From Nanobdellota archaeon (GTDB lineage Archaea; Nanobdellota; Nanobdellia; Woesearchaeales; UBA583), in contig JAIUMM010000002.1 of the NCBI GenBank assembly GCA_022565615.1, positions 884 through 64,883 on the forward strand: a stretch of DNA of 64,000 nucleotides, read 5' to 3'. The notes under the pieces were generated by a model. It made no database searches. It was not told where the DNA came from and saw nothing but the letters and a program-made list of their open reading frames with translations. A program made the position numbers and the translations under genes. Position 1 is the first letter of the stretch. Each line of letters starts with the position of its first letter. This document shows, in pieces, positions 46,950-63,278 of the stretch.

Positions 46950-47963
46950 TTAGTATCTTTTTTTTTCTTTTTCTTTTCTCAATATTTGTTTACTAAAAGT
47001 ATCAAAATCACTTTCAATATGTTGAGTACTATTAAAAATATCATATTCTTGACCTGCTTTTTCTTTTGCTTTTTCAAATGAAATCTCTCCTTTACCATCT
47101 AATATTTTATACTCTTGAAAATCTAAAAATTTATCAACTGATAATTTAAATTCTTCCATAGTAAACACTCTTTTTCTCTCAATTAATCCTTCAATATAAT
47201 CAAAAAAACCAGTAATTACTCTCTCAAGTTGTTTAATCCCTTTCTCATCTAAATAATTTTTAGCAATTAATACATCACTTTTTAAAATTCTATCTTTATT
47301 CTTCCAAGTCTTTAAACCTAGATTTTCCTTTTTATGAGAAACATTTGAATAAATAATCTCACTTGCAGTTTTATTTGAAATAGCATAATGAAATTTATTT
47401 TGAATTGTTGCAAAAAACTCTCTTGTAACATCTGAATGTTTATCATAATCAATAGAACATTCAGCAAAAATATCAGTAATTTGTTGATAAATTCTCCTCT
47501 CACTTGCACGAATTGAACGAATTCTCTCAAGTAATTCTTTAAAATAATTTTTATTCAAATCTTGTCCTTGCTTTAAACGTTCATCATCTAACACATATCC
47601 TTTTAAAATAAACTCTTTTAATTGCTTTGTTGCCCAAATTCTAAACTGAGTAGCTTTTTGTGAATTCACACGATACCCAACACTAATAATAGCATCTAAA
47701 TTATAAAATAAAGTTTGATATGTTTTACCATCTAAAGCAGTATGTGCAAATTTTGCACTAACTGAATTTTCAACAAGCTCTTCTTCATCAAAAATATTTT
47801 TTAAATGCTTAGTAATTACTGTCCTATCAACCCCAAATAACTCTGCCATTAACTTTTGAGTAAGCCAAATATTTTCATCTCTAAAATAAACTTCAATTTG
47901 AGAATTTCTCTCTTGATTAAATAATGCAAATGATTTAACAACAAAATTAGAATCCTTATTCAT
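46950..47963 (-). CDS. rhuM: RhuM-family (virulence protein RhuM-like) protein
   Basis: 337 aa. The N-terminal region IEVYFRDENIWLTQKLMAELFGVDRTVITKHLKNIFDEEEL…YNLDAIISVGYRVNSQKATQFRIWATKQLKEFILKGYVLDDERLK is the characteristic RhuM signature. Confidence 0.85.
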   Translation of the reverse strand: MNKDSNFVVKSFALFNQERNSQIEVYFRDENIWLTQKLMAELFGVDRTVITKHLKNIFDEEELVENSVSAKFAHTALDGKTYQTLFYNLDAIISVGYRVNSQKATQFRIWATKQLKEFILKGYVLDDERLKQGQDLNKNYFKELLERIRSIRASERRIYQQITDIFAECSIDYDKHSDVTREFFATIQNKFHYAISNKTASEIIYSNVSHKKENLGLKTWKNKDRILKSDVLIAKNYLDEKGIKQLERVITGFFDYIEGLIERKRVFTMEEFKLSVDKFLDFQEYKILDGKGEISFEKAKEKAGQEYDIFNSTQHIESDFDTFSKQILRKEKEKKRY

Positions 47964-51533: not shown

Positions 51534-52061
51534 TTAAATTAATTCTTCCAATCTTTTTCTATCTAATTTTTTAAGAGGTTCAATTGAGCCAATATTAATA
51601 CCATCTCCTATTTCAATAAACGGATTTTTTATCATCTCAGGAGTTCCAAAAACAACAAATTTTTCATCATAAATAGTATATGCAAGAGAAACTATTTGTA
51701 CATTGCTTCCTCTATAAACAGGTTCAGAGAGTTTACTTAAAAATGAATCAACTCTTTGAAGAGATAAATTATTAGGTTTTGGATATTTAATTCTTTTAAA
51801 TTGAGGTGTTATAATACTAAAATTTTGAAAACTCCACTCATCAATATTTGGGTCTATTAATCCAATACCAAAACAATGTTTAGACATACTTCCACAATGT
51901 TTTAAGCCTTGTTTCATTTGTTTTAGAAATTCATTAATCCCAAGATAACTACGAGAATCATCAAAATTTCTAAATCCAAATTCTTCAAGATATTTTCTTA
52001 TATTAAAATTAGGAGAAGAATTTGCACATTTTTGAAGTTCTTCTAATGCTGTTTCAATCAA
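51534..52061 (-). CDS. hypothetical protein, paralog family member 1
   Basis: 175 aa. It aligns with ORF 52893-53444: SPNFNIRKYLEEFGF vs NPNFDILQTMGTFGF, and ITPQFKRIKYP…SLQRVDSFLSKLSE vs YTPEFRRFRNT…PKSSIDTLCEILSQ. Confidence 0.55.
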   Translation of the reverse strand: MIETALEELQKCANSSPNFNIRKYLEEFGFRNFDDSRSYLGINEFLKQMKQGLKHCGSMSKHCFGIGLIDPNIDEWSFQNFSIITPQFKRIKYPKPNNLSLQRVDSFLSKLSEPVYRGSNVQIVSLAYTIYDEKFVVFGTPEMIKNPFIEIGDGINIGSIEPLKKLDRKRLEELI

Positions 52062-52117: not shown

Positions 52118-52900
52118 ATGAGTTCTCAACATTATAAAGAAGAAGATATTAAATTAGTTCAAGAAGTAGTTGAGAAAATAATAATTTTACTATCACAAAA
52201 TTCTTTTAAAATAATTAAAGAATTATCAACAAAAAAATTAAATAGTTTTGATGCTATAATTAGAGAATTTCAAAGAATAATATATATAGAATTAACAATT
52301 CAAAATGTAATTGTACAATCTCCTTACGAGTTTGTATCTCCATATAAACCATTACTTTCAAAAGAAATTAGAAAAGAAGGAAGAAGTGATAGTAATTCAA
52401 TAAGTTCAGGAGTTGGAACATATTTATCAATAATAATTGCTCTATTTTTAATTTCAAAAGGATTAGAAAAACATAATTTTCAAATCTCAAAAGAATACTT
52501 TGAACTTCTTGCATACTCTTCTCTTGATATAATTGATTATAATAAAAAAATATTTGGTGTTGAAGTAATACATCAAAAACTATTTAATTTTATTCCTATC
52601 AAACCAAGAGTTATAATCTCAAATTCTATTCCTTTTCTCAATGATGCACTCTTTAAATTAGGTGGAGGAGCATGTCCATATACAAATGGAAAAAAAGGTA
52701 AAGATTTAAATGCTAAATTAATTACTCAATCTTTAATATTTTTAGAACAATTTTATCAAAAAATTTTATCAAAATATGAACATTTAGAATATAAACCAAA
52801 TACAATACCTGATTTTCTCATAATATTAAGAGGAGAGTTTGATGCTATAAATTTTGAACATTTATATAATAATCCTTCAATTTTTAAAAAAATTAACTAA
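52118..52900 (+). CDS. hypothetical protein
   Basis: 260-aa ORF between the two paralogs. It has one central hydrophobic segment (GTYLSIIIALFLISKG). Confidence 0.5.
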   Translation: MSSQHYKEEDIKLVQEVVEKIIILLSQNSFKIIKELSTKKLNSFDAIIREFQRIIYIELTIQNVIVQSPYEFVSPYKPLLSKEIRKEGRSDSNSISSGVGTYLSIIIALFLISKGLEKHNFQISKEYFELLAYSSLDIIDYNKKIFGVEVIHQKLFNFIPIKPRVIISNSIPFLNDALFKLGGGACPYTNGKKGKDLNAKLITQSLIFLEQFYQKILSKYEHLEYKPNTIPDFLIILRGEFDAINFEHLYNNPSIFKKIN

Positions 52901-53444
52901 AAAATTCTTCCCCAATTTTAATTTGAGGAATACTTCCATTAATTTTAATATTTCCTTTTTTATTATCATACATTATTCTATTTATAGCATCATAATAATG
53001 AGAATTATCACTCTTTACTCTTAAACACTTAGATAAGAGGAATTCTGATTTTTTTCTAAAATCAACTCTTCTAATTACAACATCATCTTTTAATTCTTGA
53101 GATAATATTTCACATAATGTATCTATTGAACTTTTAGGTAATCCAGTAGTATTTCTAAATCTTCTAAATTCAGGCGTATATAAATCAATAGTGCCAAATT
53201 TGTCTTCTTCATCTTCAAAAGAACATATATAGCACAAATCTTTACTTCTCCCATTTAATATAATAGGAATCATCGGATTCTTAGAGTTATTAAATAATGA
53301 GTTTAATTTAGATTGAATTCCTCTATATTCTCTATGATTAAATGATATTGGAAATCCAAATGTTCCCATTGTTTGTAAAATATCAAAATTAGGATTTTGA
53401 ATATACTTTCTTAATTCTAAATGTGGAACTACCATAAAAGACAT
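52893..53444 (-). CDS. hypothetical protein, paralog family member 2
   Basis: 183 aa. See 51534-52061. It overlaps the convergent 260-aa gene by 8 nt. Confidence 0.55.
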   Translation of the reverse strand: MSFMVVPHLELRKYIQNPNFDILQTMGTFGFPISFNHREYRGIQSKLNSLFNNSKNPMIPIILNGRSKDLCYICSFEDEEDKFGTIDLYTPEFRRFRNTTGLPKSSIDTLCEILSQELKDDVVIRRVDFRKKSEFLLSKCLRVKSDNSHYYDAINRIMYDNKKGNIKINGSIPQIKIGEEFFS

Positions 53445-53480: not shown

Positions 53481-53780
53481 TTGGGCTCTATAAATTGTAT
53501 GATTGAATTTATAGTAAATCAACTTTTAGAAGGATTTTCAAGATATTATGGACTTGATTATATTAGTTTTATACTTGGAGTGAGTGGAACAATTTTACTC
53601 ACTAAGAAAAATGAAGCAGGATTTTTGCTCACAGCAAGTTCAGTAGTTCTTGCATCAATTGTAGCTGTAATTGCTCAACAATATGGATTTTTAGTTGCAA
53701 ATACTGTAAGTTTTGTATTACTTATTAGAGGATTTATTATTTGGAGAAAAGAGAAAAAATTAGTAATTAAAACAATTTAA
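53481..53780 (+). CDS. small 3-TM membrane protein (PnuC- or semiSWEET-like?)
   Basis: 99 aa from a TTG start; an in-frame ATG at 53499 gives MIEFIVNQ…. It has three hydrophobic helices. LLTKKNEAGF and the terminal GFIIWRK are weakly PnuC-like. Confidence 0.35.
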   Translation: MGSINCMIEFIVNQLLEGFSRYYGLDYISFILGVSGTILLTKKNEAGFLLTASSVVLASIVAVIAQQYGFLVANTVSFVLLIRGFIIWRKEKKLVIKTI

Positions 53781-53788
53781 ATTAATTA

Positions 53789-54181
53789 TTAAAATAATCT
53801 ATCTAAATCAACATTACATGTTAAATTTAAATTGTGAGTATGTTTAGTAGTTTTGTATGGAAGAAGTTTTCCATTTAGTGCTTTTTTAATAATTTCTTCT
53901 TTAGTACAACGTAAGTGTAGTCTATTTGGATAAAAATCAAGAATAAAAGAAGAATCTTGAACATAATTTACATATACAACAGGAATAAATTTACATCCCA
54001 AATCCAGAAGAACACTATACCTATGATGTCCATCTAAAATAACATTTGATTTTTTATCAATTATAATTGCTCTTTCAATAACATTATTCTCAGCAATACC
54101 TGCACTCACAACTTCATAATTCTCAAAATCAACTTCTTCGTGAGGAAGAAGAGCATCAATTTCAACTATTTCAAACGACAT
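53789..54181 (-). CDS. ParB/sulfiredoxin (Srx)-fold domain protein
   Basis: 130 aa. IDALLPHEEV… followed by AIIIDKKSNVILDGHHRYSVLLDLG shows the DGxHR motif of ParB-N/Srx-fold proteins. Last gene of the minus-strand operon. Confidence 0.6.
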   Translation of the reverse strand: MSFEIVEIDALLPHEEVDFENYEVVSAGIAENNVIERAIIIDKKSNVILDGHHRYSVLLDLGCKFIPVVYVNYVQDSSFILDFYPNRLHLRCTKEEIIKKALNGKLLPYKTTKHTHNLNLTCNVDLDRLF

Positions 54182-54211
54182 TTTATATTAATATTTATTA
54201 TAGTACTTTTG

Positions 54212-55489
54212 TTATTTTAAATGTTTCTCTTTATATTCTAAAAAACCACCTTTTAAATAAGAATAATTCAAATTATATTTTTTATTCATAAAAGCACTAA
54301 TTTTTTTAGAACTTTTTGAATTTGTACAGACAAATAGAACTTCATTAAAATTTTTAAATATATTCTCCTCTTCTACTAATTCACATAATTGTTGATAACT
54401 AATATTAATTGAGTTTTGAATTGATTCAAGTTTAAATGAAATTGAAGATCTCAAATCAACTATTAAATTTGATTCTTTAACTAAGTCCTGAGATTTAGAA
54501 TACATTTCAATCTCTTCTAGATTTAAATTAGAGACTGAAAATTTAGAAGAAGTTTGAGCAAATAAATTAGGTCTGTGTTTTTTAATATAATCTATATAAG
54601 GTTCAACTCTATCACATGCAATAAATACAATATTAATTGGAGTCTCAATTTTTTTATTGTTAAAAAAGTTAATAACACTTTGATAAGTAGCTCCTCCAGT
54701 TGGACCTACCAAAAGTCCACATCTTTGCTGCAAAGTGAGCATTCCATTAATTGCATCATTTATTGTACAAGTATTAATTGAATCATAAAATTCTTTTTTG
54801 AAGAACCCTGTTTCCCACATCTCATTTAAACTTCTTCCCCCAGGAATATATTCATCTTCTTCTGATACCACTCCAATTATTGAAGTACTTCTTTCTTTTT
54901 TTAATACTTCCCCAACACCTCTTGAACTACCTCCAGTTCCTAAAAAACTAAAAAAATAATCTACTTTTTCTAAATCTTCAATAATCTCAATTCCCATTTT
55001 TTTTTGAGAATTAGGATTATTCTCGTTTTGATATTGCTTAGTATAAAAATACTTTTGAGGATTTGAGTTTTCAAGTTCCATTGCAATAAATTTTGGATCA
55101 TTTCTATCATTTGGATTACTAGGCCTACACTCTAAGACACCTGGAAATTCAACAATTTCGCAATTTAATAATTGAAGAATTTCTCGCACATTATTCTCTT
55201 TAATTCTATTAGTGTAATTTTGAAAAGTAATATTTTCTTTTGAACATAAAATACACAGAGCTTTTGAAGTATTTCCACTTGAAGATTCGATAACGATTTT
55301 ATTATTATTTTTAATATCTTCTAAATTATTTTGAATCATTCCCCAAGCAATTCTATCTTTTAAAGATCCAAATGGATTAAATAATTCTAACTTAGCATAT
55401 ATATTTAAATTTTCAATATTGTGAATTTTTGAATCAATTTCAAGAATTGGAGTATTTCCAATTAATTGAGTTACATCTTTAATTATCAT
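54212..55489 (-). CDS. CysK/CysM/SbnA-type PLP beta-replacement enzyme fused to a C-terminal rhodanese-like domain
   Basis: 425 aa. Motifs: NPFGSLKDRIAWGMI (PLP lysine), SSGNTSKAL, FLGTGGSSRGVG (phosphate loop). The C-terminal ~100 aa has a rhodanese layout (LIVDLRS…LFVCTNSKSSKKISAFM…LKGGFLEY) and retains the loop Cys. Confidence 0.75.
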   Translation of the reverse strand: MIIKDVTQLIGNTPILEIDSKIHNIENLNIYAKLELFNPFGSLKDRIAWGMIQNNLEDIKNNNKIVIESSSGNTSKALCILCSKENITFQNYTNRIKENNVREILQLLNCEIVEFPGVLECRPSNPNDRNDPKFIAMELENSNPQKYFYTKQYQNENNPNSQKKMGIEIIEDLEKVDYFFSFLGTGGSSRGVGEVLKKERSTSIIGVVSEEDEYIPGGRSLNEMWETGFFKKEFYDSINTCTINDAINGMLTLQQRCGLLVGPTGGATYQSVINFFNNKKIETPINIVFIACDRVEPYIDYIKKHRPNLFAQTSSKFSVSNLNLEEIEMYSKSQDLVKESNLIVDLRSSISFKLESIQNSINISYQQLCELVEEENIFKNFNEVLFVCTNSKSSKKISAFMNKKYNLNYSYLKGGFLEYKEKHLK

Positions 55490-56981
55490 TTTCTTCTAAA
55501 ATCTCCCAGTTATTAGTATCTATATTAGTTACTTTAAAATACTTACTTTTTTTTTGCATTAAAGGAGATGCATCTTGAAAATAAGACTTATATGCTCCTG
55601 TATTTGTAAAAATAATCATATCACCAATTTTAGGTTCATTATTATTATTATTATTTTCAATATAAATAGGTCTTCTCATCAATATATCATCTTCAGAGCA
55701 AGTATTTCCAAATAAATACATTTTTGAAGCATTACTTTGAGGTTTAATAATAACTTTAGTAGGTAGAGAGCTATTAATATTATTATAATTATTCAAATTT
55801 TCATCACTTGAAGAAATATATATAGGGTCACACAATGATTCAAAAAATGTTGAAGAGATATTTGAAGAATTAATATTACAACTAGAAATATAAGAATTGT
55901 CTTTATATTTTTTCACATCAATTATTTTTGCAATTGAAATTCCACTTTGTTCTAGTAAATTATAACCAGGTTCTAAGCAAAGAGTAATATTTAGTTCTTC
56001 TAAAATCTTAGAGATTGTAATATGTTCATTAAAATTAGTATTTAATATTTCGTTAAAATATGATAATTTGTTAAACATTCCTTGATATACTTTTTGTTTT
56101 AGGATTTGAAGTCCTTTAACTTGATTATTAATCAATGATAAATCATAAAAATCATTTCTCCAATTCTCAGAGTGCTCATTGTGTTGTAATTTTTGACTCA
56201 AGATATTTAAATAGTCTCTATATGAATGAATATCTTTAACATGATGAAGAGGACTAAATGCTCCTCCAATATTTATAATAGTTGTATTAAAACCAATTTC
56301 TCTTGTTTTTATAACTTGAGTAATCATTTCTTTAATAAACTCAGCTTTTAATTCTCTTTGAACTTCACTTCTATGAATATGAAACCCTTTTAGTTCAATA
56401 CTATTGGAATTTTGAGTTATTAGAGAATAACACTCATCTAAATCCTCAATTAAAATACCAAATCGTGAATCTTTTAATGTAATATTTCCATATGAAATTC
56501 TTGGATTACTAATTCTAAGTAAAATAGATGTTTTAGAATTTTCTAAATTATGTTCTTTTTTAATTGAAATAATTCTTATTAATTCATTAATACTATCACA
56601 AGAAATTAAACAGTTTTTTTCAATGGCTAGTTTTAAAAAAGAATCACTTTTAGGACCAGTACATTCAATTCTTGAACCTTCAAACCCAATTTCCAAAACA
56701 TCAAGTAATTCATTCTCAGAAGCAACATCAATGTGTATATCATTATCAAGAGCTACTTGTGTAAATATTTTTGAAGGATTTGCTTTTTTAGCAAAATATA
56801 TTCTGGTATTACATTCAAAATTATCTTTAAAAATATTTTTAAATTGAGTAATATGGTTCTCCATTATTTGTGGGAATAGTAAGTGAATTGGTGAATCTTC
56901 TTCTTTAAATTTAGAAAGTAAATTTGTTTTATTTAGAAAATCCTCAATTAAGGGATGAATATAACTTTCAACTTTTATCAT
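55479..56981 (-). CDS. fold-III PLP-dependent decarboxylase (Orn/DAP/Arg decarboxylase family)
   Basis: 500 aa. Motifs: IYFAKKANPS (PLP Lys), IDVASENEL, INIGGAFSP, EPGYNLLEQSG, LFGNTCSEDDIL, TNTGAYKSYF. Asn-rich insertions are present. It overlaps the next gene by 11 nt. Confidence 0.8.
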   Translation of the reverse strand: MIKVESYIHPLIEDFLNKTNLLSKFKEEDSPIHLLFPQIMENHITQFKNIFKDNFECNTRIYFAKKANPSKIFTQVALDNDIHIDVASENELLDVLEIGFEGSRIECTGPKSDSFLKLAIEKNCLISCDSINELIRIISIKKEHNLENSKTSILLRISNPRISYGNITLKDSRFGILIEDLDECYSLITQNSNSIELKGFHIHRSEVQRELKAEFIKEMITQVIKTREIGFNTTIINIGGAFSPLHHVKDIHSYRDYLNILSQKLQHNEHSENWRNDFYDLSLINNQVKGLQILKQKVYQGMFNKLSYFNEILNTNFNEHITISKILEELNITLCLEPGYNLLEQSGISIAKIIDVKKYKDNSYISSCNINSSNISSTFFESLCDPIYISSSDENLNNYNNINSSLPTKVIIKPQSNASKMYLFGNTCSEDDILMRRPIYIENNNNNNEPKIGDMIIFTNTGAYKSYFQDASPLMQKKSKYFKVTNIDTNNWEILEENDN

Positions 56982-57058
56982 TTTTTCTATAAATAATATT
57001 AATAAGGGTGATTTTATAATTATTCGTATAATTAATTAGTTATTCAAAGAATTATTAA

Positions 57059-58045
57059 TTATTTATTGTTATCAAATATGATTTTCTCATATGTAAACTG
57101 AGATAAATCAACATTTGAGATATCTTCTCCATAATAATCATTATACCAGCTCTTAGATATTTTAGTATGTAATTCAACTAATTTTTGTAAATAATTATTC
57201 CAATTTTTACTACTTAAAGAAGTGATATAAACTTCAATAGAGTGTAAAATTTCATGATATTCATTAACAATTTCTTGAAGAGAGATTTCTAAACCTTGTT
57301 CAATTTTTCTAAATTTAGTACTTAGAGGAAATAAGAATAGTTTGGAATCTTTAAGAATTGAATTATTTTTAAGTTGAGATTTGATAAATTCTTCATCTTC
57401 TTTATTGGTAATTTTATTTCCAATAATACAAATATTAGTAAGATTTGAATTTTCTTCAACTAATTTTTCAACAAAATCAGAACAAACTTGAATTGATTTT
57501 AATGTAGGTTCAACTATAAAAAATAGAACATCATAACTCATAAATAATGAAGTTCCTAAAATATCAGACCCTGCTGTTGAGTCTATAAGTACAATTTCAT
57601 CTTTTTTATCAATTAAGTGATGTAGTAAAATTTCAAGTGAGTTTAATTTTGAATGATAACAATTACTTCCGATATCTTCTTTTGAATAATTTCCAACTTT
57701 TGTAAATAAAATATTATTTTTTTTAACAAAAAATTCTTTAAAAATATAATCATTAGAATTTACTTGAATAAATTTAGAAGTATGATTTGGAGGAGTAGTA
57801 CCAATCATTTTAGAAACACAAATATCACATCTTCCATTGTGAACATATTGAGTTAATTCTTCAATTCTCTCTCCAATTGGAATTTTATCAAATTCAATAT
57901 TTAGAGCAGTATTAAGATGAGAATTTAAATCAGCATCAATTACTGCAAGTTCTCTATTTAGATATGTAGATGAAAAATATGTAGCAAGTAACGATGTAAT
58001 AGTAGTTTTTCCACTACCGCCTTTTCCAACAATTCCAATTCTCAT
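57059..58045 (-). CDS. CooC/MinD-type (deviant Walker A) SIMIBI ATPase
   Basis: 328 aa. Motifs: MRIGIVGKGGSGKTTITSLLA (KGGxGKT), VLIDSTAGSD (Walker B-like), and GSNCYHSKLNSLEILLHHL at the position where CooC-type proteins carry CxC. Confidence 0.7.
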   Translation of the reverse strand: MRIGIVGKGGSGKTTITSLLATYFSSTYLNRELAVIDADLNSHLNTALNIEFDKIPIGERIEELTQYVHNGRCDICVSKMIGTTPPNHTSKFIQVNSNDYIFKEFFVKKNNILFTKVGNYSKEDIGSNCYHSKLNSLEILLHHLIDKKDEIVLIDSTAGSDILGTSLFMSYDVLFFIVEPTLKSIQVCSDFVEKLVEENSNLTNICIIGNKITNKEDEEFIKSQLKNNSILKDSKLFLFPLSTKFRKIEQGLEISLQEIVNEYHEILHSIEVYITSLSSKNWNNYLQKLVELHTKISKSWYNDYYGEDISNVDLSQFTYEKIIFDNNK

Positions 58046-58046
58046 T

Positions 58047-59528
58047 TTATCTTAATCCTCCTTCTAGTGTTAATTTTTGTTGATTTGAATACCTTGAAAA
58101 CATATTTTGTGCAAATTCAAGTGTTTCTTCATCTGTTAACTTAGGAAGTTCATCTCTACTTACAGAGCTATATAGTTGCATAAATTTGTCTCTTGCAGGA
58201 ATATAGTGAGCAGAATTTGGAGAAAATTCTTCAATTGTATACAACAATGAAACATTTCTTAATATTCTTTGAGCATCACTAAGTTGAGATGAATCACTAT
58301 TTACAAAGTCCCACATTCCATTAACAATTTCTGGGGCATATCTATCAATTAATGATTTTGAATTATCTTCTCCTCTTTCAAACTTATATTGTTCAATAGC
58401 ACCAAGAGCAGAGTCATAATCACTTCCATCAATTGCTTGTTGAATATATTCTTCAACTTTATCTGTTGGTGAATAAATACGCATAACAGGAGGATTTTCA
58501 GGTTTATCAAGAATTGGTGATAATTTTTCTTCAAGAGAATCTTTTTTAAAAAATTTACCATCTTGATTAGCAACTAAAATTGTACCATTTTTTAAATCTG
58601 AATTTTTAATTTCATCAAATTCAACTTCTCCTCTTACTCCATCAAATTTTAAAACTTTTTGTGAATTTATAGCTACATATCCTTTTACTCTATCATAGTT
58701 TTCTGTAAGTTCAGAGACAAGTCTTTTAAATATTTCTTCACTTACATAAGGATTTTCAATAATTGCATGAAGTTGATTAATCCAGTTTGGATTAGAAGAA
58801 TGTGTGTGTCCTTGATGCCCACTTCCAAATATTATGGGACTTGAAGGGTTTTTACCTCCTACTATCATTTGTGCAATTCCTAAACTAGATTGATTATTGG
58901 GTTGAGTAGTAAGATTAGTATTAAGCTGAGAATTTTTATTCATTTCTTTTAAAAAATCATCAAGTGTTAAATGAGTATTTTTATCAACTTGAATCATAGA
59001 AACATTATTTTCGTTATATTCTTGCAATAATTTTCTATATTCATTAGTCAATTCTCTTTTTGTAATTCCAATTACATCTGTAAATGGAATTTCATCAGCA
59101 GCTCCTACTAAACCAAAATTTTTAGGGTCTACTAAGTATATTGACTTAGGTAAAAATATTCCTTTTGAACCTAGTTGAGATTTCATTGTAACAAGAGGCA
59201 TTTGTCCTGAGAGTTCAACCACAACTCTTTTTAATCCTCTTTGCTGTAATTCATCAACTTTTCTAAATGCAGCATTTGGACCATCAAAAACAGTACATGC
59301 AGAAGTTGCATTTTCAATTGAAATTCCTTTTTGTTCTGCAAGAGTATTAATTCTTTGAAAATCAATATTTCCAGCAGCATCCATTACTACTAAACCGTCT
59401 TGTTTAGGATTAAAACTGTCGTTTTTAATTAAATTTGAAAGTAGAGTTGTTTTTCCAGCTCCAAGACTTCCTCCAAGTAGTATGATTTCTTCAAGAGTCG
59501 TTGGTTGTTTAATTTGTGCAAATACCAT
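58047..59528 (-). CDS. divergent COG0523/G3E-like P-loop GTPase with C-terminal extension
   Basis: 493 aa. It has LLGGSLGAGKTTLLSNL (Walker A) and VVELSG. SACTVFDG replaces the canonical GCICC. A His-rich linker (GSGHQGHTHSS) and a CobW_C-like segment (RVKGYVAINSQKVLKFDGV) follow, then ~150 extra residues. It lies 1 nt from the next gene. Confidence 0.6.
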   Translation of the reverse strand: MVFAQIKQPTTLEEIILLGGSLGAGKTTLLSNLIKNDSFNPKQDGLVVMDAAGNIDFQRINTLAEQKGISIENATSACTVFDGPNAAFRKVDELQQRGLKRVVVELSGQMPLVTMKSQLGSKGIFLPKSIYLVDPKNFGLVGAADEIPFTDVIGITKRELTNEYRKLLQEYNENNVSMIQVDKNTHLTLDDFLKEMNKNSQLNTNLTTQPNNQSSLGIAQMIVGGKNPSSPIIFGSGHQGHTHSSNPNWINQLHAIIENPYVSEEIFKRLVSELTENYDRVKGYVAINSQKVLKFDGVRGEVEFDEIKNSDLKNGTILVANQDGKFFKKDSLEEKLSPILDKPENPPVMRIYSPTDKVEEYIQQAIDGSDYDSALGAIEQYKFERGEDNSKSLIDRYAPEIVNGMWDFVNSDSSQLSDAQRILRNVSLLYTIEEFSPNSAHYIPARDKFMQLYSSVSRDELPKLTDEETLEFAQNMFSRYSNQQKLTLEGGLR

Positions 59529-59539
59529 TTTTTAATTAT

Positions 59540-60163
59540 TTAACTCATTCCTCCTTCAATTCTGTTCTCTAACGAATTATTCTCTAATGAACTTTTAAGA
59601 TAATGCTCAGCGTTTAATCCAAGCACATTCAACTCTCTTTCTTGCAAATAAGAAAAAGGATTTAAATCATATCCAAATCTATCTTGAAGTTGTTTACCTA
59701 AATAGTCCACAATTTCTCTTCTTGTTAAAAATCCTTCAAATAGTCCAACTTCTCTTGCTTCTTTTATTTCTTGTTCAAGTGCAAATTTCCTTTGAACAAA
59801 ACTTCCTCTTCTAGATAATTCAACTATATTTGAATTTTTAAATTGAGAAAAATCCATTTTACCCAATAATCCTTTTGCAAATTTAGAAGCTGGTTTTCCT
59901 TTTCTTGTTTTTCTCATCTCAAGAGGTTGTTCTTTGAGCAACTCTTGAAGAGAATTTTGAGATGAATATATACTTTTGGAGTTTTTTTCAATCTTATAAC
60001 TATCTAGTGAAATAACTTGACAAGGTTCATTTTTGTAACACCCTTCACTTTTTCTTGAAAATTCTTCTATTTCATATCTAGGAGATGCAAAATGTAGTGC
60101 AATAACATTTCCTGTTTTATATTTAATTTGAGTATCTAAATCGTGTTGTTTATATGAGTTCAT
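59540..60163 (-). CDS. hypothetical protein
   Basis: 207-aa ORF inside the operon, 11 nt upstream of the next gene. No motif recognised. Confidence 0.5.
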   Translation of the reverse strand: MNSYKQHDLDTQIKYKTGNVIALHFASPRYEIEEFSRKSEGCYKNEPCQVISLDSYKIEKNSKSIYSSQNSLQELLKEQPLEMRKTRKGKPASKFAKGLLGKMDFSQFKNSNIVELSRRGSFVQRKFALEQEIKEAREVGLFEGFLTRREIVDYLGKQLQDRFGYDLNPFSYLQERELNVLGLNAEHYLKSSLENNSLENRIEGGMS

Positions 60164-60173
60164 TTTAATTGCC

Positions 60174-60197
60174 TTTATTTATTTATTTATTTATTTA
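60174..60197. repeat. (TTTA)6 microsatellite
   Basis: Six perfect TTTA units span the COG0523 stop codon and the intergenic spacer. Confidence 0.9.
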
Positions 60198-61441
60198 ATT
60201 TTTATTTTCTTCCTCTTCTTCATCTATTTCTGGAATTTCAAATTTAGGAAATGGGTCTTCAAAATTTTTCCACTCTTCAACACTAAGTTTCATCTCTTCA
60301 TCAGTAAGTAGAGCATCATCAAGAGCTTGAATAAGTAAATTTTTATCATAATTATTCCCAATAAATACTAACTCTTGTCTTCTATCTCCAAATGGTTCAA
60401 CCCAAATTTCTTGTAATTGATCCCACATATCTTTATTTTCTTGAAGCTCTTCTTTACTAAGAGTTCCATACCAATATCCAGCAATAGTATACTCTAAAAT
60501 TTTACCAGCAATATTAAACATTAGAGCAAATTCATTTCTTGTTGCAAGCCAAAAATATCCTTTTGAACGAATTATTCCATGAAGTACAGGAGATTGTAAA
60601 ATATCTTTAAATCTTTTTGGATGAAATGGTCTTCTTTGTCTATATACAAATGATGAAATACCATATTCTTCAGTTTCAGGAGTATGTTCTCCTCTTAATT
60701 CTTTAAGCCAACCAGGAGATTGAGATGCTTTTTCAAAATCAAATAAATTAGTATTAATAATTTCTTTTAAATCAACTTGTGAATACTGAGTTTCAATAAT
60801 TTTAGCATCAGCATTTAATTTTGAAATAATTGCTTTAATCTTTTCAACCTCGTCTTCTTTTAATTTATCAATTTTATTTAATACAATTACATTTGCAAAT
60901 TCAATTTGATCAACTAATAAATTAGTAATAGTTCTCTCATCTTCTTCACCTAATTCTTCTCCTCTATCTTTTAAGAACTCTTTTGAGTTAAAATCATTAA
61001 AAAATTATACGCATCAACAACAGTGACCATTGTATCAAGCTTTGCAAAATCTGCAAGTGAGTCTCCTTCATCATCTTCAAATGTAAATGTTTCAGCAACA
61101 GGAAGAGGCTCAGAAATACCTGAACTCTCAATTACTAAATAATCGAATCTATTTTCTTGTGCTAATTTTTTAATTTCAACAAGTAAATCTTCTCTTAAAG
61201 TACAACAAATACATCCATTAGACATTTCAACCATCTTCTCTTCTGTTCTTGATAATTGAATATCAGAGTTTTCAACTTGAAGAGCATCAATATTAATCTC
61301 AGACATATCATTTACAATAATTGCCACTTTCATACCTTCTCTGTTTCTTAAGATATTGTGTAAAAGAGTAGTTTTTCCAGAACCTAAAAATCCTGATAAA
61401 ACAGTCACGGGTAATTTTTTTTCAATACTATTTTGAATCAT
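60195..61441 (-). pseudogene. COG0523 (CobW/YjiA/ZigA-type) G3E metallochaperone GTPase, frame broken in a homopolymer run
   Basis: The N-terminal part (61441-60971) has [25 protein letters not shown] and ESSGISEP. The rest (…DERTITNLLVDQIEFANVIVLNKID…GWLKEL…EEYGISSFVYRQRRPFHP…IIRSKGYFWLATR…) is open in the -1 frame from 61004 down to 60195. The frames switch within the A6 run at 60999-61004 (T6 on the coding strand). Confidence 0.85.
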
Positions 61442-61590
61442 AAGTTAAGTAATTAAATCTATTTTATAAAAGTTATTAATAATTTTGATTAAAGTTAATA
61501 ATATTTCATTGAATTCAGATTATAATTTAATAATTTTCACATTTAATTATAATTTAAAAATTAGAAAGAAAAAAATAAATTTACTTAGAT

Positions 61591-62754
61591 TTACAAATCT
61601 TTATGAATTTTAAAAATCACAAATAAAATTAACAAAAATATTATTAATGAAATGAATTTGAATGGAATAAATAACAAAGTTGAACTGATAATTAATTTAG
61701 AAAATAGTGAACCAATATCTTTACCAGTTAAGAAGAGAGGATAGAATTTTTCTTCTTCAATTTGAGTTGTATGTTTAAAGAAATAAACTTCCTTTAAAGG
61801 TTCAATAAATGCAATTGGAAGTGCTGTTAAAATTAATATCACTACAATAAATAAAAAATTGAATGAAACAATAAATGCAAGAAGATACAACATAGCTAGT
61901 AAAATAAACGAAAAATAAAGTAATTTAATAACTTTAATTTTTTTTATAAAATAATTCATGTTAATTTGAATAAACATTAATGGAAATAGAATAGCAGATA
62001 TAAATAATCCACCATATAAAATTCCAAAATTTTTTTCAATTTCTAGTAATACAAATACAAATAAAAAAGAATAATGAAAATAGCAAGTAAAATTAAACAA
62101 ATATGAATTAAACAATTTATTATTTTTAAAAAAATCTTTAATATTTAGCATTGGATTTGAATCAATTTTTTTTCTTTTTTTTCTTTTAAGTTTAATTTTG
62201 ATTTGTAATGAATATACTAATGAAAAGAAAAATATCAAACTAAGTAGTAAAAACACATACTTAAACTCAAATATATCTAAAAAGAATCCTATTAACATAG
62301 AACCTAAAAACCATGAAATATTAGAAATTCCATAAAGTAAACTTTCATTATTATCAAATTCTTCTTCTTTTGATAAATCTCTAAACACAATACCAAAAGC
62401 ATTATCCCCTAAATTTACTAAAATTAATCCAGCTATTAATACTAATATGAAAAAATAAACATTTTCAATAAAAAATACTAATAAATATAAAATACATAAA
62501 GATATAATTTGAAATAAATATAATTTATATTCATTAAATCTCTCAAGAACTGAGCTAATAAATAAGTTAAAAATAATATTTATAAAGATAACTGCTGCAA
62601 GGATATATCCAATAGTCGAACTACTAAAACCTAAATGAGATAAATAAAGAGTTCCTACTATTCCTAGTGCAACAATACCAAAACTAACTAAAAAAGAACT
62701 AATTAATAGTTGTTGTATCGTATTTAATTTAAGATTTTTAATTTGAAATAACAT
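61591..62754 (-). CDS. MFS-like 6+6 TM transporter
   Basis: 387 aa. Two bundles of hydrophobic helices are separated by a basic central loop (KLKRKKRKKIDS). There is no clean DRxGRR motif, so the family call is tentative. Confidence 0.5.
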   Translation of the reverse strand: MLFQIKNLKLNTIQQLLISSFLVSFGIVALGIVGTLYLSHLGFSSSTIGYILAAVIFINIIFNLFISSVLERFNEYKLYLFQIISLCILYLLVFFIENVYFFILVLIAGLILVNLGDNAFGIVFRDLSKEEEFDNNESLLYGISNISWFLGSMLIGFFLDIFEFKYVFLLLSLIFFFSLVYSLQIKIKLKRKKRKKIDSNPMLNIKDFFKNNKLFNSYLFNFTCYFHYSFLFVFVLLEIEKNFGILYGGLFISAILFPLMFIQINMNYFIKKIKVIKLLYFSFILLAMLYLLAFIVSFNFLFIVVILILTALPIAFIEPLKEVYFFKHTTQIEEEKFYPLFLTGKDIGSLFSKLIISSTLLFIPFKFISLIIFLLILFVIFKIHKDL

Positions 62755-62857
62755 TTATTTATGATATATATTATCGATTTTTTTTAAAATTGTTTGTATT
62801 ATTGCTAAATATTATTATGATCTTTAAATTAAATTTATTAATAATTATTATCCAAAA

Positions 62858-62869
62858 GTATTTAAAAAA
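62858..62869 (+). promoter_or_regulatory. TATA-like box upstream of nikR
   Basis: GTATTTAAAAAA ends 20 nt upstream of the ATG at 62889. Confidence 0.35.
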
Positions 62870-62888
62870 TTAATAACTATATAGAAAT

Positions 62889-63278
62889 ATGGCAGAAATA
62901 ATTTCAATATCACTTAATAAAGAAATGATTGAGCAAATGAATATAATTCAAAAAGAAATGAGTTTTTCAGGACGCTCAGAAATTGTACGAGCAGGACTTA
63001 GAAATTTAATTGAAGAATATAATTCACTGCATGCTCTAAGTGGTATAGTTGAAGGAACATTAATTGTAACACATAAAGAGGAGTTTAATGATGAGTTTTC
63101 AAAAATTAAACATACAGCCCCTCATGACAGTGTTAAAACACATTTACATCATGAACTTTCAAATCATTTATGTATGGAAGTATTATTATTTAGAGGAGAT
63201 AGTAAATATTTACAAGATTTATATAAAAGATTTACAAGTTCTAGGAAAATAGAGAGTGTAAAAGTAGTAGTTTATTAG
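62889..63278 (+). CDS. nikR: NikR-type nickel-responsive regulator (RHH + metal-binding domain)
   Basis: 129 aa. The N-terminal RHH is ISISLNKEMIEQMN…FSGRSEIVRAGLRNLIEE. The C-terminal His/Cys cluster THLHHELSNHLCMEV resembles the NikR high-affinity site HxH…C. Confidence 0.75.
   Translation: MAEIISISLNKEMIEQMNIIQKEMSFSGRSEIVRAGLRNLIEEYNSLHALSGIVEGTLIVTHKEEFNDEFSKIKHTAPHDSVKTHLHHELSNHLCMEVLLFRGDSKYLQDLYKRFTSSRKIESVKVVVY

Follow-up and report, generated by a model that had tools for sequence, protein, structure and literature searches.

A seven-gene operon of PLP enzymes and metallochaperone-type NTPases in a Nanobdellota archaeon and its possible role in zinc starvation

The window analysed in this work is a 64,000-nt stretch of DNA from a Nanobdellota archaeon. 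A seven-gene operon on its minus strand was confirmed at 53789-61441. The genes of the operon, the two genes upstream of it and the associated non-coding features are shown in Table 1. All nine open reading frames that a sequence-only reading of this DNA had described, including the seven co-directional genes, the upstream MFS-like transporter and the divergent NikR, were found in place. Its domain calls were upheld by Pfam, NCBIfam and PDB profile matches and by Foldseek. Its gaps of 1-77 nt and single 11-nt overlap agree with the values re-read from the sequence, which are 31 nt between the COG0523 and 207-aa genes, then 11 nt, 1 nt and 77 nt, an 11-nt overlap between the decarboxylase and PALP genes, and 30 nt between the PALP and 130-aa genes. 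The seven genes are preceded by a TATA-like box and an operator-like dyad of their own.

Table 1. Features of the operon and its upstream region, with positions counted from the first letter of the window.
Feature	Position	Strand	Characteristics
NikR-family regulator, 129 aa	62889..63278	+	Divergently transcribed; Pfam NikR_C
MFS transporter, 387 aa	61591..62754	-	Pfam MFS_1
Operator-like dyad	61473..61501		TTATTAA-N15-TTAATAA
TATA-like box TTTATAAA	61463..61470	-	29 nt upstream of the COG0523 ATG
ZigA-type COG0523 GTPase	60195..61441	-	cobW + CobW_C with GCICC; frame broken
207-aa orphan protein	59540..60163	-	Without family match
Divergent COG0523-like GTPase, 493 aa	58047..59528	-	Weak cobW; best structural match YjiA
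CooC-type ATPase, 328 aa	57059..58045	-	Best PDB match CooC1
Fold-III PLP decarboxylase, 500 aa	55479..56981	-	Orn_Arg_deC_N
PALP (CysK/SbnA-type)-rhodanese fusion, 425 aa	54212..55489	-	PALP + Rhodanese
Mini-SerK, ParB/Srx-fold, 130 aa	53789..54181	-	NCBIfam SerK, SbnI

The decarboxylase matches Orn_Arg_deC_N (7.2e-19) and scores 102 bits with the LysA model against a cut-off of 298. Its distant PDB relatives are DAP, D-Orn/Lys, BtrK and N-citrylornithine decarboxylases. The catalytic residues PLP-Lys66, His203, EPG, Cys428 and Asp432 are conserved in 66 family members. The PALP-rhodanese protein (AF2 pLDDT 86.8) matches both of its Pfam domains (PALP 4.8e-41, Rhodanese 9.8e-9). Its family shares an invariant PLP Lys44, SSSGNT loop, rhodanese Cys388 and further motifs, and Cys388 aligns with catalytic GlpE-type rhodaneses. 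The PALP domain is about equally near to CysK, CysM, CBS and SbnA, and the strong PDB matches include beta-cyanoalanine synthases. The top Foldseek matches are the AMA synthase structures 8H4H and 8H4Q, the latter a complex with O-phosphoserine, across both domains (E 8.6e-25, about 460 aligned columns). The HMM comparison with AMA synthase gives E 4.7e-39. However, AMA synthase is no nearer by sequence than ordinary CysK, so the two-domain architecture may be convergent. The rhodanese fusion is not peculiar to this operon; it characterises a very large family and is also found in the fungal AMA synthase and Fda4.

The canonical COG0523 gene was correctly reported to have a CxCC motif and a broken frame. 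The break is one missing T, where the window has T6 at 60999-61004 and intact orthologues have T7 (TAT AAT TTT TTT AAT). The frame-corrected protein of 415 aa is 88-91% identical to intact orthologues and scores 627.9 bits against the NCBIfam ZigA equivalog cut-off of 600. The frame shift of this gene in the window genome is an observation that speaks against a zinc-ligand function.

The 207-aa protein has no match in Pfam or NCBIfam, and a single related cluster was found among 1.84 billion representatives. It is 50% identical to a 196-aa protein in the same position in locus L004. The divergent COG0523-like GTPase (cobW 1.1e-10; AF2 pLDDT 83) is composed of a G-domain, a His-rich disordered linker, a beta-domain and an extra alpha-helical C-terminus. 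Its family comprises 16 clusters and lies inside the gene cluster in the window, L007, L089, L090 and L091. The family motif SACTVCDGP is SACTVFDGP in the window protein.

The CooC-type ATPase aligns with CooC1 (3kje) across its full length (4.3e-11) and has the deviant Walker A motif GKGGSGKT. Its GSNCYHSK segment aligns with GSQCYCRE of CooC1, which places Cys129-x-His131 on the CooC metal site, and both residues are invariant in the family (29/29). The CooC-like gene is present in 24 loci, and in actinomycetes its slot is filled by a protein with a CopZ-like CxHC domain. Metallophore clusters do not usually include metallochaperone-type NTPases, which speaks against a metallophore role; overlap of the CooC-like gene with the decarboxylase gene is nevertheless frequent.

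The 130-aa protein matches NCBIfam SerK (1.2e-11) and SbnI (5.1e-7). It aligns to residues 18-105 and 202-240 of T. kodakarensis SerK and keeps PHE, DGHHR and KTT[KR]H. By these alignments it is a shortened ParB/Srx-fold relative of the SerK/SbnI free serine kinases. Distant members of this mini-SerK family adjoin the same cluster in L093 and a decarboxylase gene in L092.

The NikR-family protein (NikR_C 3.2e-11) scores 37-61 bits with the NCBIfam NikR models, all under cut-off. Aligned with P. horikoshii NikR, it keeps three of the four Ni ligands (H75, H87 and C95) and has Glu89 in place of the fourth. Its counterparts in L004 and L009 share 92-95% identity with it. The MFS gene (MFS_1 1.8e-24) is followed by an oligo-T after its stop and is probably a separate transcription unit. 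It is absent from the otherwise collinear L004 and L009 and is an insertion specific to the Nanobdellota window genome. No importer for a metal-ligand complex is evident in the window, a point against a metallophore function. The dyad occurs once in the window, against an expectation of 0.043 in 64 kb and 1e-4 in 150 nt, and directly precedes the TATA-like box of the COG0523 gene. L004, L005 and L009 carry the exact dyad in the corresponding position, the other 85 loci lack it, and L089 has related half-sites. The TATA-like box is the sole intergenic box of its type within the operon and is conserved in L004, L009 and L089.

The conservation of the cluster was examined in 88 loci (labelled L004, L009 and so on) from very different phyla. 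The core family of decarboxylase and PALP-rhodanese covers at least 596 bacterial and archaeal species. The two genes are adjacent in 87 of the 88 loci, across archaea and many bacterial phyla, which argues that the arrangement is not due to chance. The complete DPANN layout is also found in L004/L005, L009 and L089-L091. The cluster is not DPANN-specific, and some of its carriers are DPANN and CPR organisms whose genomes are extremely reduced. Recurrent genes around the pair encode the CooC-like ATPase, the divergent COG0523-like GTPase, NikR or Fur regulators, ZnuABC, canonical COG0523 proteins and, as tailoring enzymes, SAM methyltransferases. CzcAB, MerC and ArsP lie beside bacterial versions. 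The sequence-only reading had allowed for lack of synteny, housekeeping CysK and LysA, and NTPases from unrelated operons; synteny was found in related and distant genomes, and neither PLP enzyme comes near any equivalog cut-off. The NTPase genes are part of the cluster and not of neighbouring operons, the divergent cobW-like one being in-cluster in 5/5 contexts checked.

The bacterial versions have a SufS-like desulfurase gene in place of the mini-SerK gene of the DPANN versions, in which the SufS-like gene is missing. The SufS-like gene is adjacent, often overlapping, in 80/88 loci, and its catalytic Lys and Cys are kept (70/70). The invariant rhodanese cysteine and this partner point to persulfide chemistry, which would be needless in an AMA-type reaction. 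The flanks of the window cluster are 86-95% identical to those of L004/L009, against 31-45% for the CooC-like, decarboxylase and PALP genes. The transporter also differs, being MFS here and ZnuABC there. The putative biosynthetic core and the transporter are shown to have been exchanged as a cassette between close relatives, which recalls diversification at siderophore loci.

No published description of the operon was found in the literature, in line with the earlier remark that no system of this composition is described. We tentatively interpret it, with a probability of about 0.45, as a metal-starvation operon, most likely for zinc, whose enzymes would convert serine to a small compound that binds metal. 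This interpretation rests on the ZigA equivalog score, NikR/FUR and ZnuABC genes in L004, L009, L010, L089 and L090, the CzcAB, MerC and ArsP genes beside bacterial versions, the AMA synthase/Fda4 architecture, the sbn parallels, the conserved dyad, the cassette swap and the methyltransferases. A metal-regulated small-molecule pathway or a sulfur/metal-centre assembly line had been proposed before as candidate roles; synteny, family scores and parallels support that proposal. The gene context points to zinc rather than nickel.

The NikR-family repressor would bind the dyad by the TATA-like box and silence the seven genes at metal sufficiency. The PALP-rhodanese enzyme may form PLP-aminoacrylate from O-phosphoserine and join it to a nucleophile. 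The nucleophile could be the amine of an amino acid, which is the case in AMA synthase, Fda4 and SbnA, or it could be persulfide sulfur bound to the invariant rhodanese cysteine. The decarboxylase would then strip a carboxylate, in the manner of SbnH in staphyloferrin B synthesis and AesC in EDDS synthesis, leaving an aminoethyl (ethylenediamine- or cysteamine-type) group. The product would most likely be an O-phosphoserine-derived aminoethyl-type N/S ligand. The cluster has no SbnB/AesB-type dehydrogenase, as noted before, and no ligase (NIS synthetase, ATP-grasp or NRPS), so the product would be of very small size and might chelate metal only weakly, which counts against the metal-ligand reading. 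The MFS protein may export it in the window genome. The ZigA-type GTPase, the divergent GTPase and the CooC-like ATPase would handle metal by loading or unloading the ligand or by passing metal to client proteins.

An unlikely alternative is a sulfur-relay and metal-insertion line that assembles a metal-sulfur centre, or a metal cofactor containing sulfur, for a protein client. Sulfur would reach the rhodanese cysteine from a cysteine desulfurase, a SufS-like one in bacteria and a housekeeping one in DPANN, the PLP domain and decarboxylase would build or trim an organic scaffold, and the CooC-like ATPase and COG0523 GTPases would insert the metal. This logic resembles LarB/LarE/LarC for the nickel-pincer cofactor or CooC for the CODH C-cluster. 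The catalytic-type Cys388, the widespread SufS-like partner, the Cys-x-His site (or CopZ-like CxHC in its slot) and two further G3E GTPases suit it. However, no conserved candidate client metalloenzyme was found in the neighbourhoods examined, the carriers can be extremely reduced, the DPANN versions do without SufS, and a diffusible small molecule accounts more readily for the mini-SerK, methyltransferase, MFS/RND exporters and cassette swap.

Somewhat less probable still is a branch of primary metabolism that spares or mobilises zinc, in which the PLP enzymes make or degrade cysteine or polyamine-type metabolites under Zn limitation and the NTPases metallate them or other enzymes. Cysteine could be made without sulfide from O-phosphoserine and persulfide, as by CysM-CysO in M. 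tuberculosis, or a Cys-Zn pool could be broken down, analogous to ZigA and the histidine-utilisation enzymes of Acinetobacter. The ZigA-type score and the even likeness of the PALP domain to CysK, CysM, CBS and SbnA are compatible with it. Zur regulons commonly hold zinc-free enzyme paralogues and COG0523 genes (PMC6103462), and SerK with an O-phosphoserine-using CysK makes cysteine in Thermococcus (PMC5120207). However, making cysteine with sulfur drawn from cysteine itself through SufS brings no gain, the near-constant decarboxylase/PALP pair scores far below LysA and CysK cut-offs, and methyltransferase tailoring, exporters and fast cassette turnover are atypical of housekeeping bypasses.

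Cyanide is classically detoxified by two activities, those of rhodanese and of the CysK homologue beta-cyanoalanine synthase, and relatives of both are fused in the present enzyme. A module for detoxifying cyanide or reactive sulfur, with persulfide from the SufS-like protein and beta-cyanoalanine converted by the decarboxylase, would agree with the PDB matches, the catalytic-type rhodanese and the position of L006 amid oxidative-stress genes (desulfoferrodoxin, Fur-family regulator, GSHPx and flavoprotein). It is very improbable, as the enzyme resembles cyanoalanine synthase no more than it resembles CysK, and the mini-SerK, three metallochaperone-type NTPases, ZnuABC, NikR/ZigA context, methyltransferase and exporters are left unaccounted for. 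Least credible is an ordinary housekeeping CysK and LysA/SpeA lying by chance beside unrelated NTPase genes, which generic public annotations ('pyridoxal-phosphate dependent enzyme', 'cysteine synthase B') would suggest, but which is contradicted by synteny across archaea and many bacterial phyla and by NTPase genes embedded in the cluster in at least five independent contexts, the housekeeping identity being ruled out by the equivalog scores, a family of their own, the fused rhodanese and the invariant motifs.

The SerK/SbnI, SbnA/SbnH and EDDS parallels are backed by database matches and papers. Three operon genes parallel SbnI, a free serine kinase supplying O-phosphoserine, SbnA and SbnH of staphyloferrin B synthesis. 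Zur regulons include metallophore clusters such as that for EDDS (PMC6103462). The only characterised enzymes with the PALP-rhodanese architecture, AMA synthase and Fda4, convert O-phosphoserine to N-(2-amino-2-carboxyethyl) amino acids. Fda4, a PLP enzyme with a rhodanese-like domain, condenses O-phosphoserine with L-Ala, and marasmins are metal chelators (PMC12751119). AMA synthase likewise leads from O-phosphoserine to a metal chelator.

The open reading frames named in the sequence-only reading were all recovered from the sequence at their coordinates and on the minus strand. The operon genes are packed tightly as had been described, with gaps of 31, 11, 1, 77, and 30 nt and one 11-nt overlap. 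The domain assignments are each backed by profile searches (Pfam and NCBIfam). The features are listed in the table below with the protein identities to L004 and L009, two loci of other genomes that carry related clusters. The 207-aa protein was assigned to no family by the Pfam and NCBIfam profile searches, and a single related cluster was found for it in the database search. The GC content is about 25% across the window. The protein in which a PALP domain is fused to a rhodanese domain (PALP-rhodanese) is identical to one protein in a Nanoarchaeota MAG record that was retrieved in the database search.

Features of the operon region in the window and counterparts of its regulator in related loci
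Feature	Locus	Coordinates	Strand	Profile-search result	Identity to L004/L009
NikR-family regulator with Glu for ligand His	window	62889-63278	plus	NikR_C, 3.2e-11 (Pfam)	92-95%
MFS transporter	window	61591-62754	minus	MFS_1	
COG0523 protein (ZigA-type)	window	60195-61441	minus	cobW + CobW_C, GCICC	88-91%
207-aa protein	window		minus		~50%
493-aa COG0523-like GTPase	window	58047-59528	minus	weak cobW match	
CooC-like ATPase (328 aa)	window	57059-58045	minus	CbiA/MinD-type P-loop	33%
Decarboxylase	window	55479-56981	minus	Orn_Arg_deC_N	31-33%
PALP-rhodanese	window	54212-55489	minus	PALP + Rhodanese	45%
130-aa protein (mini-SerK)	window	53789-54181	minus	SerK (1.2e-11), SbnI (5e-7)	86-87%
NikR-family regulator with Glu for ligand His	L004	5142-5531			
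NikR-family regulator with Glu for ligand His	L009	372-761			
NikR-family regulator with Glu for ligand His	L089	1443-1829			

Several other genes were observed in the surroundings of the operon. A 99-aa membrane protein (53481-53780, plus strand) matches just the first ~70 of the 175 positions of the NMN_transporter profile and has a 93-aa counterpart in L004; either the gene is truncated or the transporter is of half size. Two unannotated proteins of 175 and 183 aa (51534-52061 and 52893-53444, both minus strand) have no Pfam match and look, by eye, like paralogues that share ...PNF.I..Y...FGF... near the N-terminus. A RhuM-family 'virulence protein' (46950-47963, minus strand; Pfam 6.9e-100) is encoded between a ribonucleotide reductase gene, which has a TSCPD-domain gene downstream of it, and a run of unknown genes, and may be a mobile or defence-related insertion. 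The Rfam and tRNA scans of the 64-kb window, which is densely coding archaeal DNA of about 25% GC, gave no tRNA, rRNA, or Rfam match.

The best-supported reading, to which we give a probability of roughly 0.45, is a metal-starvation operon, the metal probably being zinc, whose product is an aminoethyl-type N/S ligand made from serine. Serine would first be converted to O-phosphoserine, and PLP-dependent beta-substitution on O-phosphoserine followed by decarboxylation would give the ligand. The metal would be handled by the three NTPases, and the product would be exported by the MFS transporter.

The PALP-rhodanese is a separate family, since its scores against the curated NCBIfam equivalogs are about one third of the cut-offs (cysK 122.5/351, cysM 107/394, and SbnA family 121.6/350). 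PLP-Lys44, the SSSGNT loop, the Gly-rich loop, rhodanese Cys388, and a family-specific PG-x-S-x-C...DPxDPND insert are invariant in the family. The decarboxylase keeps all catalytic residues of its class (PLP lysine K66, H203, G239-G240 of the Gly loop, E337-P338-G339, and the partner-subunit residues C428 and D432), which are at least 90% conserved among 66 sequences, and it is only distantly related to the DAP, D-Orn/Lys, BtrK, and N-citrylornithine decarboxylases. It scores 102 bits against the LysA (diaminopimelate decarboxylase) cut-off of 298. Assignment of both PLP enzymes to housekeeping CysK and LysA, which the sequence-only reading had named as grounds for its rejection, thus did not materialise.

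The PALP domain precedes the rhodanese domain (Pfam), and the AF2 model of the protein has a pLDDT of 86.8. The Foldseek searches with predicted structures that had been proposed earlier led from the PALP-rhodanese to aspergillomarasmine A (AMA) synthase and from the 493-aa protein to YjiA. The best PDB matches of the PALP-rhodanese model, which extend across both domains, are the apo form and the O-phosphoserine complex of AMA synthase (8H4H/8H4Q; E 8.6e-25; about 460 columns aligned). The enzyme is no closer to AMA synthase than to CysK by profile (4.7e-39 for 8h4q vs 4.2e-44 for a CysK). The putative use of O-phosphoserine and an amino-acid amine nucleophile by the PALP-rhodanese is supported only indirectly, by the co-encoded mini-SerK.

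The mini-SerK is a predicted free serine kinase of minimal form. It matches Thermococcus SerK at its two ends (residues 18-105 and 202-240), lacks about 95 central residues, and shows the SerK motifs PHE, DGHHR, and KTT[KR]H as LLPHEE, DGHHR, and KTTKH in the alignment. These motifs, among them the PHE motif with the Glu that is mutated in PDB 5x0j, are invariant in alignment A5 and present in the homologue from L093, a bacterial locus. Similarity to SerK and SbnI was found with both NCBIfam (1.2e-11 and 5.1e-7) and PDB (5x0b 1.7e-8 and SbnI 1e-3). The protein scores 44 bits against the 380 of the full-length SerK equivalog, which has two domains and about 242-254 aa.

Other candidates for this family were rejected. 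A cyanobacterial 436-aa DGNHR protein is not a distant SerK (hhalign probability 0.5%, 10 columns aligned, and no PDB match), and the small ORFs that head loci L090 and L091 show no similarity to mini-SerK. In another locus (L092, 2782-8621), a 153-aa mini-SerK relative was observed next to a fold-III decarboxylase, a CapK_C-type ligase, and glycosyltransferases, and no PALP gene was seen. The kinase and decarboxylase of that locus may serve another purpose there, namely the supply of phosphoethanolamine with which glycans are decorated.

The rhodanese domain is of the catalytic type. Its Cys388 is invariant in the PALP-rhodanese family alignment and aligned with the catalytic Cys of GlpE-type rhodaneses, and its loop reads CTNSKSS in the window vs CPxGxxS in the family. 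The Aminotran_5 partner in the bacterial versions of the cluster is SufS-type (1e-88 to 1e-104, under the cut-off), 70/70 of its sequences keep the PLP-Lys and the catalytic Cys, and its gene frequently overlaps the PALP-rhodanese gene. We had considered this partner as a SerC-type phosphoserine aminotransferase equivalent to mini-SerK, and this was rejected because it is SufS-type with the catalytic Cys kept. The SufS-like catalytic Cys and the GlpE-aligned rhodanese Cys imply a persulfide relay that would be superfluous for an AMA-type reaction. The strongest of the rival readings, though an unlikely one, is a line of sulfur relay and metal insertion that would serve a cofactor or a metal-sulfur centre. 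The window has the predicted serine kinase where the bacterial versions have the SufS-like gene. Where operons are otherwise equal (L003 vs L093), the SufS-like gene and mini-SerK take the same place at the end, and the two never occur together in the loci sampled. The two can tentatively be described as "precursor-supply modules chosen by host metabolism".

The three SIMIBI NTPases that had been noticed from the sequence were confirmed as CooC-like, 493-aa, and ZigA-type proteins. They are also recurrent, and the cluster contains the 493-aa gene in each of the contexts inspected (the window, L007, L089, L090, and L091). The CooC-like ATPase is similar to CooC1 (3kje) along its whole length (4.3e-11 over residues 1-251) and has the deviant Walker A of the MinD/CooC fold (GKGGxGKT) as GKGGSGKT. 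Its GSNCYHSK is aligned on GSQCYCRE of CooC1, so the CooC metal site is kept in the same position as Cys-x-His, which differs from the Cys-x-Cys of CooC-type Ni-insertion ATPases. Both metal-motif residues of Cys129-Tyr-His131 are invariant in 29/29 family members. No CO dehydrogenase or acetyl-CoA synthase genes were seen beside the CooC-like gene in any context examined.

The structure model of the 493-aa protein (pLDDT 83) consists of a G-domain, a disordered His-rich linker, a small beta-domain, and an extra alpha-helical domain. The closest structure is that of YjiA (COG0523), whose architecture of a G3E G-domain and a CobW_C-like domain is aligned over 365-370 columns (Foldseek), followed by HypB, SRP GTPases, MMAA, and UreG. 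The family is small (16 clusters) and conserves the P-loop and ExSG. The 493-aa GTPase differs from the COG0523 metallochaperones by the extra alpha-helical domain, by TK for NKxD, and by CxxC for CxCC; the family motif is SACTVCDGP (C-T-V-C) and the window has SACTVFDGP (C-T-V-F). This Phe is encoded by codon 81 of the gene, a position at which at least 90% of family members have the second Cys of C-x-x-C, and the metal site of the protein in the window may be impaired or altered. The C-terminal '[LI]EGG' common to the 207-aa and 493-aa proteins was rejected as a ubiquitin-like sulfur-carrier tail because it is not conserved in other cobW-like members.

The COG0523 gene was described earlier as having CxCC present and the frame broken, and both statements hold. 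GCICC is present, and the frame is broken by one shift at a T6 run (window 60999-61004). The L004 and L009 orthologues are intact and read TAT AAT TTT TTT AAT GAT, a T7 run at the same spot, and therefore one T is missing in the window. The missing T is a sequencing error in the homopolymer or else a mutation of very recent date, and not the mark of an old pseudogene. The frame-corrected 415-aa protein has the CobW_C domain and scores 627.9 bits against the ZigA equivalog cut-off of 600 (NCBIfam), which the L004 and L089 orthologues also pass. A programmed -1 frameshift at T_TTT_TTA was considered and rejected; since the intact orthologues read straight across T7, the simpler explanation is that 1 nt was deleted or missed in sequencing. 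The heptamer is in the correct phase for -1 slippage, so low-level frameshifting could still give the full-length protein.

The window has a single copy of an exact dyad, TTATTAA-N15-TTAATAA, at 61473-61501 (expected 0.043 per 64 kb and 1e-4 per 150 nt). Immediately after it comes a TTTATAAA box, the one such box in the intergenic regions of the operon, 29 nt upstream of the COG0523 ATG. The dyad is present at the same place in L004, L005, and L009 and absent from the other 85 loci, and L089 has related GTTAATAAC half-sites. In the NikR-MFS intergenic region, isolated half-sites alone were found as operator copies, so NikR autoregulation is not established. An oligo-T run is present after the stop codon of the MFS gene and another after that of mini-SerK, which fits an MFS gene transcribed apart and the seven genes as one regulated unit.

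The regulator aligns along its full length with PhNikR, HpNikR, and EcNikR, including the ribbon-helix-helix and the C-terminal metal-binding domain, and scores under every NikR cut-off (NCBIfam). Compared with P. horikoshii NikR, three of the four ligands (His, His-x-His, Cys) are kept; the position of PhNikR His91 is Glu89 in the window and is invariant in four DPANN sequences. Extra histidines were observed near Glu89. The regulator may be a NikR-fold zinc sensor. A Fur-family regulator stands in for it in sister clusters, and zinc is the more likely signal of the operon given these replacements, ZigA, and ZnuABC. The same zinc signal would accompany zinc-sparing or zinc-mobilising primary metabolism, which is a rather improbable reading beside PLP enzymes that score far below cysK, cysM, and LysA. 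A similarly small share is left to something outside the readings considered here.

More than 1,100 database matches belong to the PALP-rhodanese family, which is present in at least 596 species genomes. The carriers among the 80 best loci include Woesearchaeota, many CPR bacteria, Melainabacteria/Obscuribacterales, Clostridia, Bacillales, Alphaproteobacteria, Micavibrio, Bdellovibrionota, and Rickettsiales, as well as actinomycetes (many Nocardia, Streptomyces including S. scabiei, and Actinoplanes). The main sample of 88 loci was picked by similarity to the query, so the following fractions describe its nearer relatives: a fold-III decarboxylase adjoins the PALP-rhodanese in 87/88 loci, and a SufS-family Aminotran_5 gene (80/88), a CooC-like ATPase (24/88), and a Fur-family regulator (14/88) are near it. 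The same sample has an unrelated protein of ~429 aa with a C-terminal CopZ-like CxHC domain in actinomycetes (32/88) and a ~270-aa family (23/88) that includes the ZnuABC ATPase of L004, L005, and L009, those three alone in the Pfam check. SAM methyltransferases are recurrent in the CPR, alphaproteobacterial, and actinomycete versions, and other neighbours are CzcAB, MerC, ArsP, and VIT1. Cyanide or reactive-sulfur detoxification, for which a catalytic rhodanese would speak, is a very improbable reading. Housekeeping genes brought together by coincidence are scarcely credible given the recurrence of these neighbours.

The layout in the window is repeated in related archaeal loci, which bears out the expected synteny. 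L004/L005 and L009 have the order NikR, ZigA-type COG0523, 196-200 aa protein, CooC-like, decarboxylase, PALP-rhodanese, mini-SerK, and ZnuABC. L089 has NikR, COG0523, cobW-like (the 493-aa type), CooC-like, decarboxylase, and PALP-rhodanese. L090 has FUR, COG0523, CooC-like, cobW-like, decarboxylase, PALP-rhodanese, and ZnuABC. L093, from a TGA-recoded CPR-like bacterium, has two CooC-like genes, decarboxylase, PALP-rhodanese, methyltransferase, and mini-SerK. This last locus is a Logan SRR35531919 contig (7560 nt, 25.6% GC) that gives no ORF of at least 100 aa with table 11 and long ORFs once TGA is read as sense (code 4/25); its mini-SerK stands where the SufS-like gene would be. Two candidate neighbours were rejected. 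A thioredoxin-reductase-like neighbour in 20 loci arose artificially when ORFs in alternative frames were grouped by single-linkage clustering, and the gene that truly recurs is the SAM methyltransferase. The Nocardia 428-aa HMA protein is not a disguised P-loop NTPase, as it lacks Walker A; it also has no relationship to the cyanobacterial 435-aa protein.

The window and L004 are collinear over about 20 kb (from ~44.2 kb to the window end) at 76-86% nucleotide identity, with two stretches at 68-69%. The protein identities between window 53789-63278 and both L004 4418-15529 and L009 fall into two classes (table), with 86-95% for the regulator, the ZigA-type protein, and mini-SerK and 31-45% for the CooC-like ATPase, decarboxylase, and PALP-rhodanese. 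The window has the cobW-like and MFS genes in addition and lacks the ZnuABC genes found 3' of mini-SerK in L004 and L009. L004 and L009 share 83-96% identity throughout, but 63% for the 207-aa gene, and the CooC-like (57%) and cobW-like (42%) proteins of the window are closer to their L089 counterparts. The split identities and the alternation of MFS and ZnuABC therefore indicate cassette replacement, in which the biosynthetic core and transporter have been exchanged inside a conserved regulatory frame. Such exchange is a familiar pattern at siderophore loci. In L009 (909-3509), two genes have been inserted between NikR and the COG0523 promoter; one encodes an ODP/metallo-beta-lactamase-flavodoxin (flavo-diiron-like) protein and the other a protein of 501 aa. 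Insertions are therefore tolerated at this site between regulator and operon, as with the MFS gene of the window.

The core consists of PALP-rhodanese and fold-III decarboxylase, SufS-like or mini-SerK, and CooC-like Cys-x-His ATPase or HMA-domain protein. It is conceivable, if doubtful, that this core builds a new S/N-donor metal-binding molecule (metallophore or cofactor), with dedicated NTPases to load or unload its metal, and that the pathway is common to DPANN archaea, CPR, predatory bacteria, Melainabacteria, and actinomycetes and diversifies by cassette exchange. If true, this would be a pathway type without a characterised example. Zinc acquisition and distribution in the smallest cells (DPANN archaea and CPR bacteria) are little understood, and the locus would hold most of a zinc-starvation response together with a biosynthetic module whose retention is unexpected for such reduced genomes. 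The two- to four-gene core in at least 596 species includes cultivable Streptomyces (S. scabiei), Nocardia, Actinoplanes, and Micavibrio, which permits direct testing of the product and the NTPase role. COG0523 and CooC-type proteins have few known clients, and the conserved genetic link to a PLP pathway is a concrete handle. A product that resembles AMA or EDDS would be a new natural zinc chelator, and chelators of this class are of interest as metallo-beta-lactamase inhibitors.

Every protein family of the operon is already known, and its logic overlaps with sbnI/A/H, aesA/C/D, and AMA synthase. NCBIfam has no specific model for any core protein, and the literature search found no description of a cluster with a catalytic rhodanese, a SufS-like/mini-SerK module, and one to three metallochaperone-type NTPases. 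We place the operon as putative metal-regulated PLP-based ligand synthesis, with a real chance of a more unusual nature.

AMA synthase and Fusarium Fda4 have the same PALP and rhodanese-like architecture as the operon enzyme, at 20-22% identity. Their substrate is O-phosphoserine, and their products are metal-chelating aminopolycarboxylates or precursors. AMA synthase joins O-phosphoserine and L-Asp to give toxin A and then AMA, and the marasmins chelate metal (PMC12751119). The common origin of the rhodanese fusion is unproven because AMA synthase is no closer than CysK by HMM, and the fungal rhodanese domain was not retrieved by the search with the prokaryotic rhodanese sequence. The fungal AMA/Fda4 clusters lack the decarboxylase, the SufS-like gene, and the NTPases.

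The aesA-D genes for [S,S]-EDDS in Amycolatopsis japonicum reportedly encode a CysK/SbnA-type PLP enzyme, a DAP-decarboxylase-type enzyme, and an MFS exporter. They form a zinc-repressed cluster for a small aminocarboxylate zincophore, and EDDS synthesis is under Zur control (PMC6103462). The operon differs in that it lacks an AesB/SbnB-type dehydrogenase, and no reports give aes a rhodanese, a SufS-like gene, a mini-SerK, or the NTPases. In Thermococcus kodakarensis, the ParB-annotated SerK makes O-phosphoserine from free serine, and a CysK-type enzyme uses it (PMC5120207), which resembles the proposed first step. That SerK has 242 aa and is ADP-dependent, the product is cysteine for primary metabolism, and the system lacks the decarboxylase, rhodanese, NTPases, and metal regulation.

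The staphyloferrin B branch of S. aureus (SbnI/SbnA/SbnH) is likewise metal-regulated. The operon is predicted to share with it a ParB/Srx-fold free serine kinase that supplies O-phosphoserine, a CysK-type PLP enzyme that uses it, and a fold-III PLP decarboxylase that gives an aminoethyl unit. The decarboxylase SbnH and the MFS exporter of that cluster have counterparts in the decarboxylase of the operon and the MFS transporter beside it. SbnI phosphorylates free serine for staphyloferrin B (Verstraete 2018, cited in PMC12704722). The kinase of the operon is a 130-aa form that lacks, besides the central residues, the regulatory part of SbnI, and the operon has neither the SbnB dehydrogenase nor the NIS synthetases (SbnC/E/F). 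In contrast to the staphyloferrin B cluster, its PLP enzyme bears a catalytic-type rhodanese, three metallochaperone-type NTPases are co-encoded, and its NikR/Fur-type regulator and ZigA gene point to Zn and not Fe.
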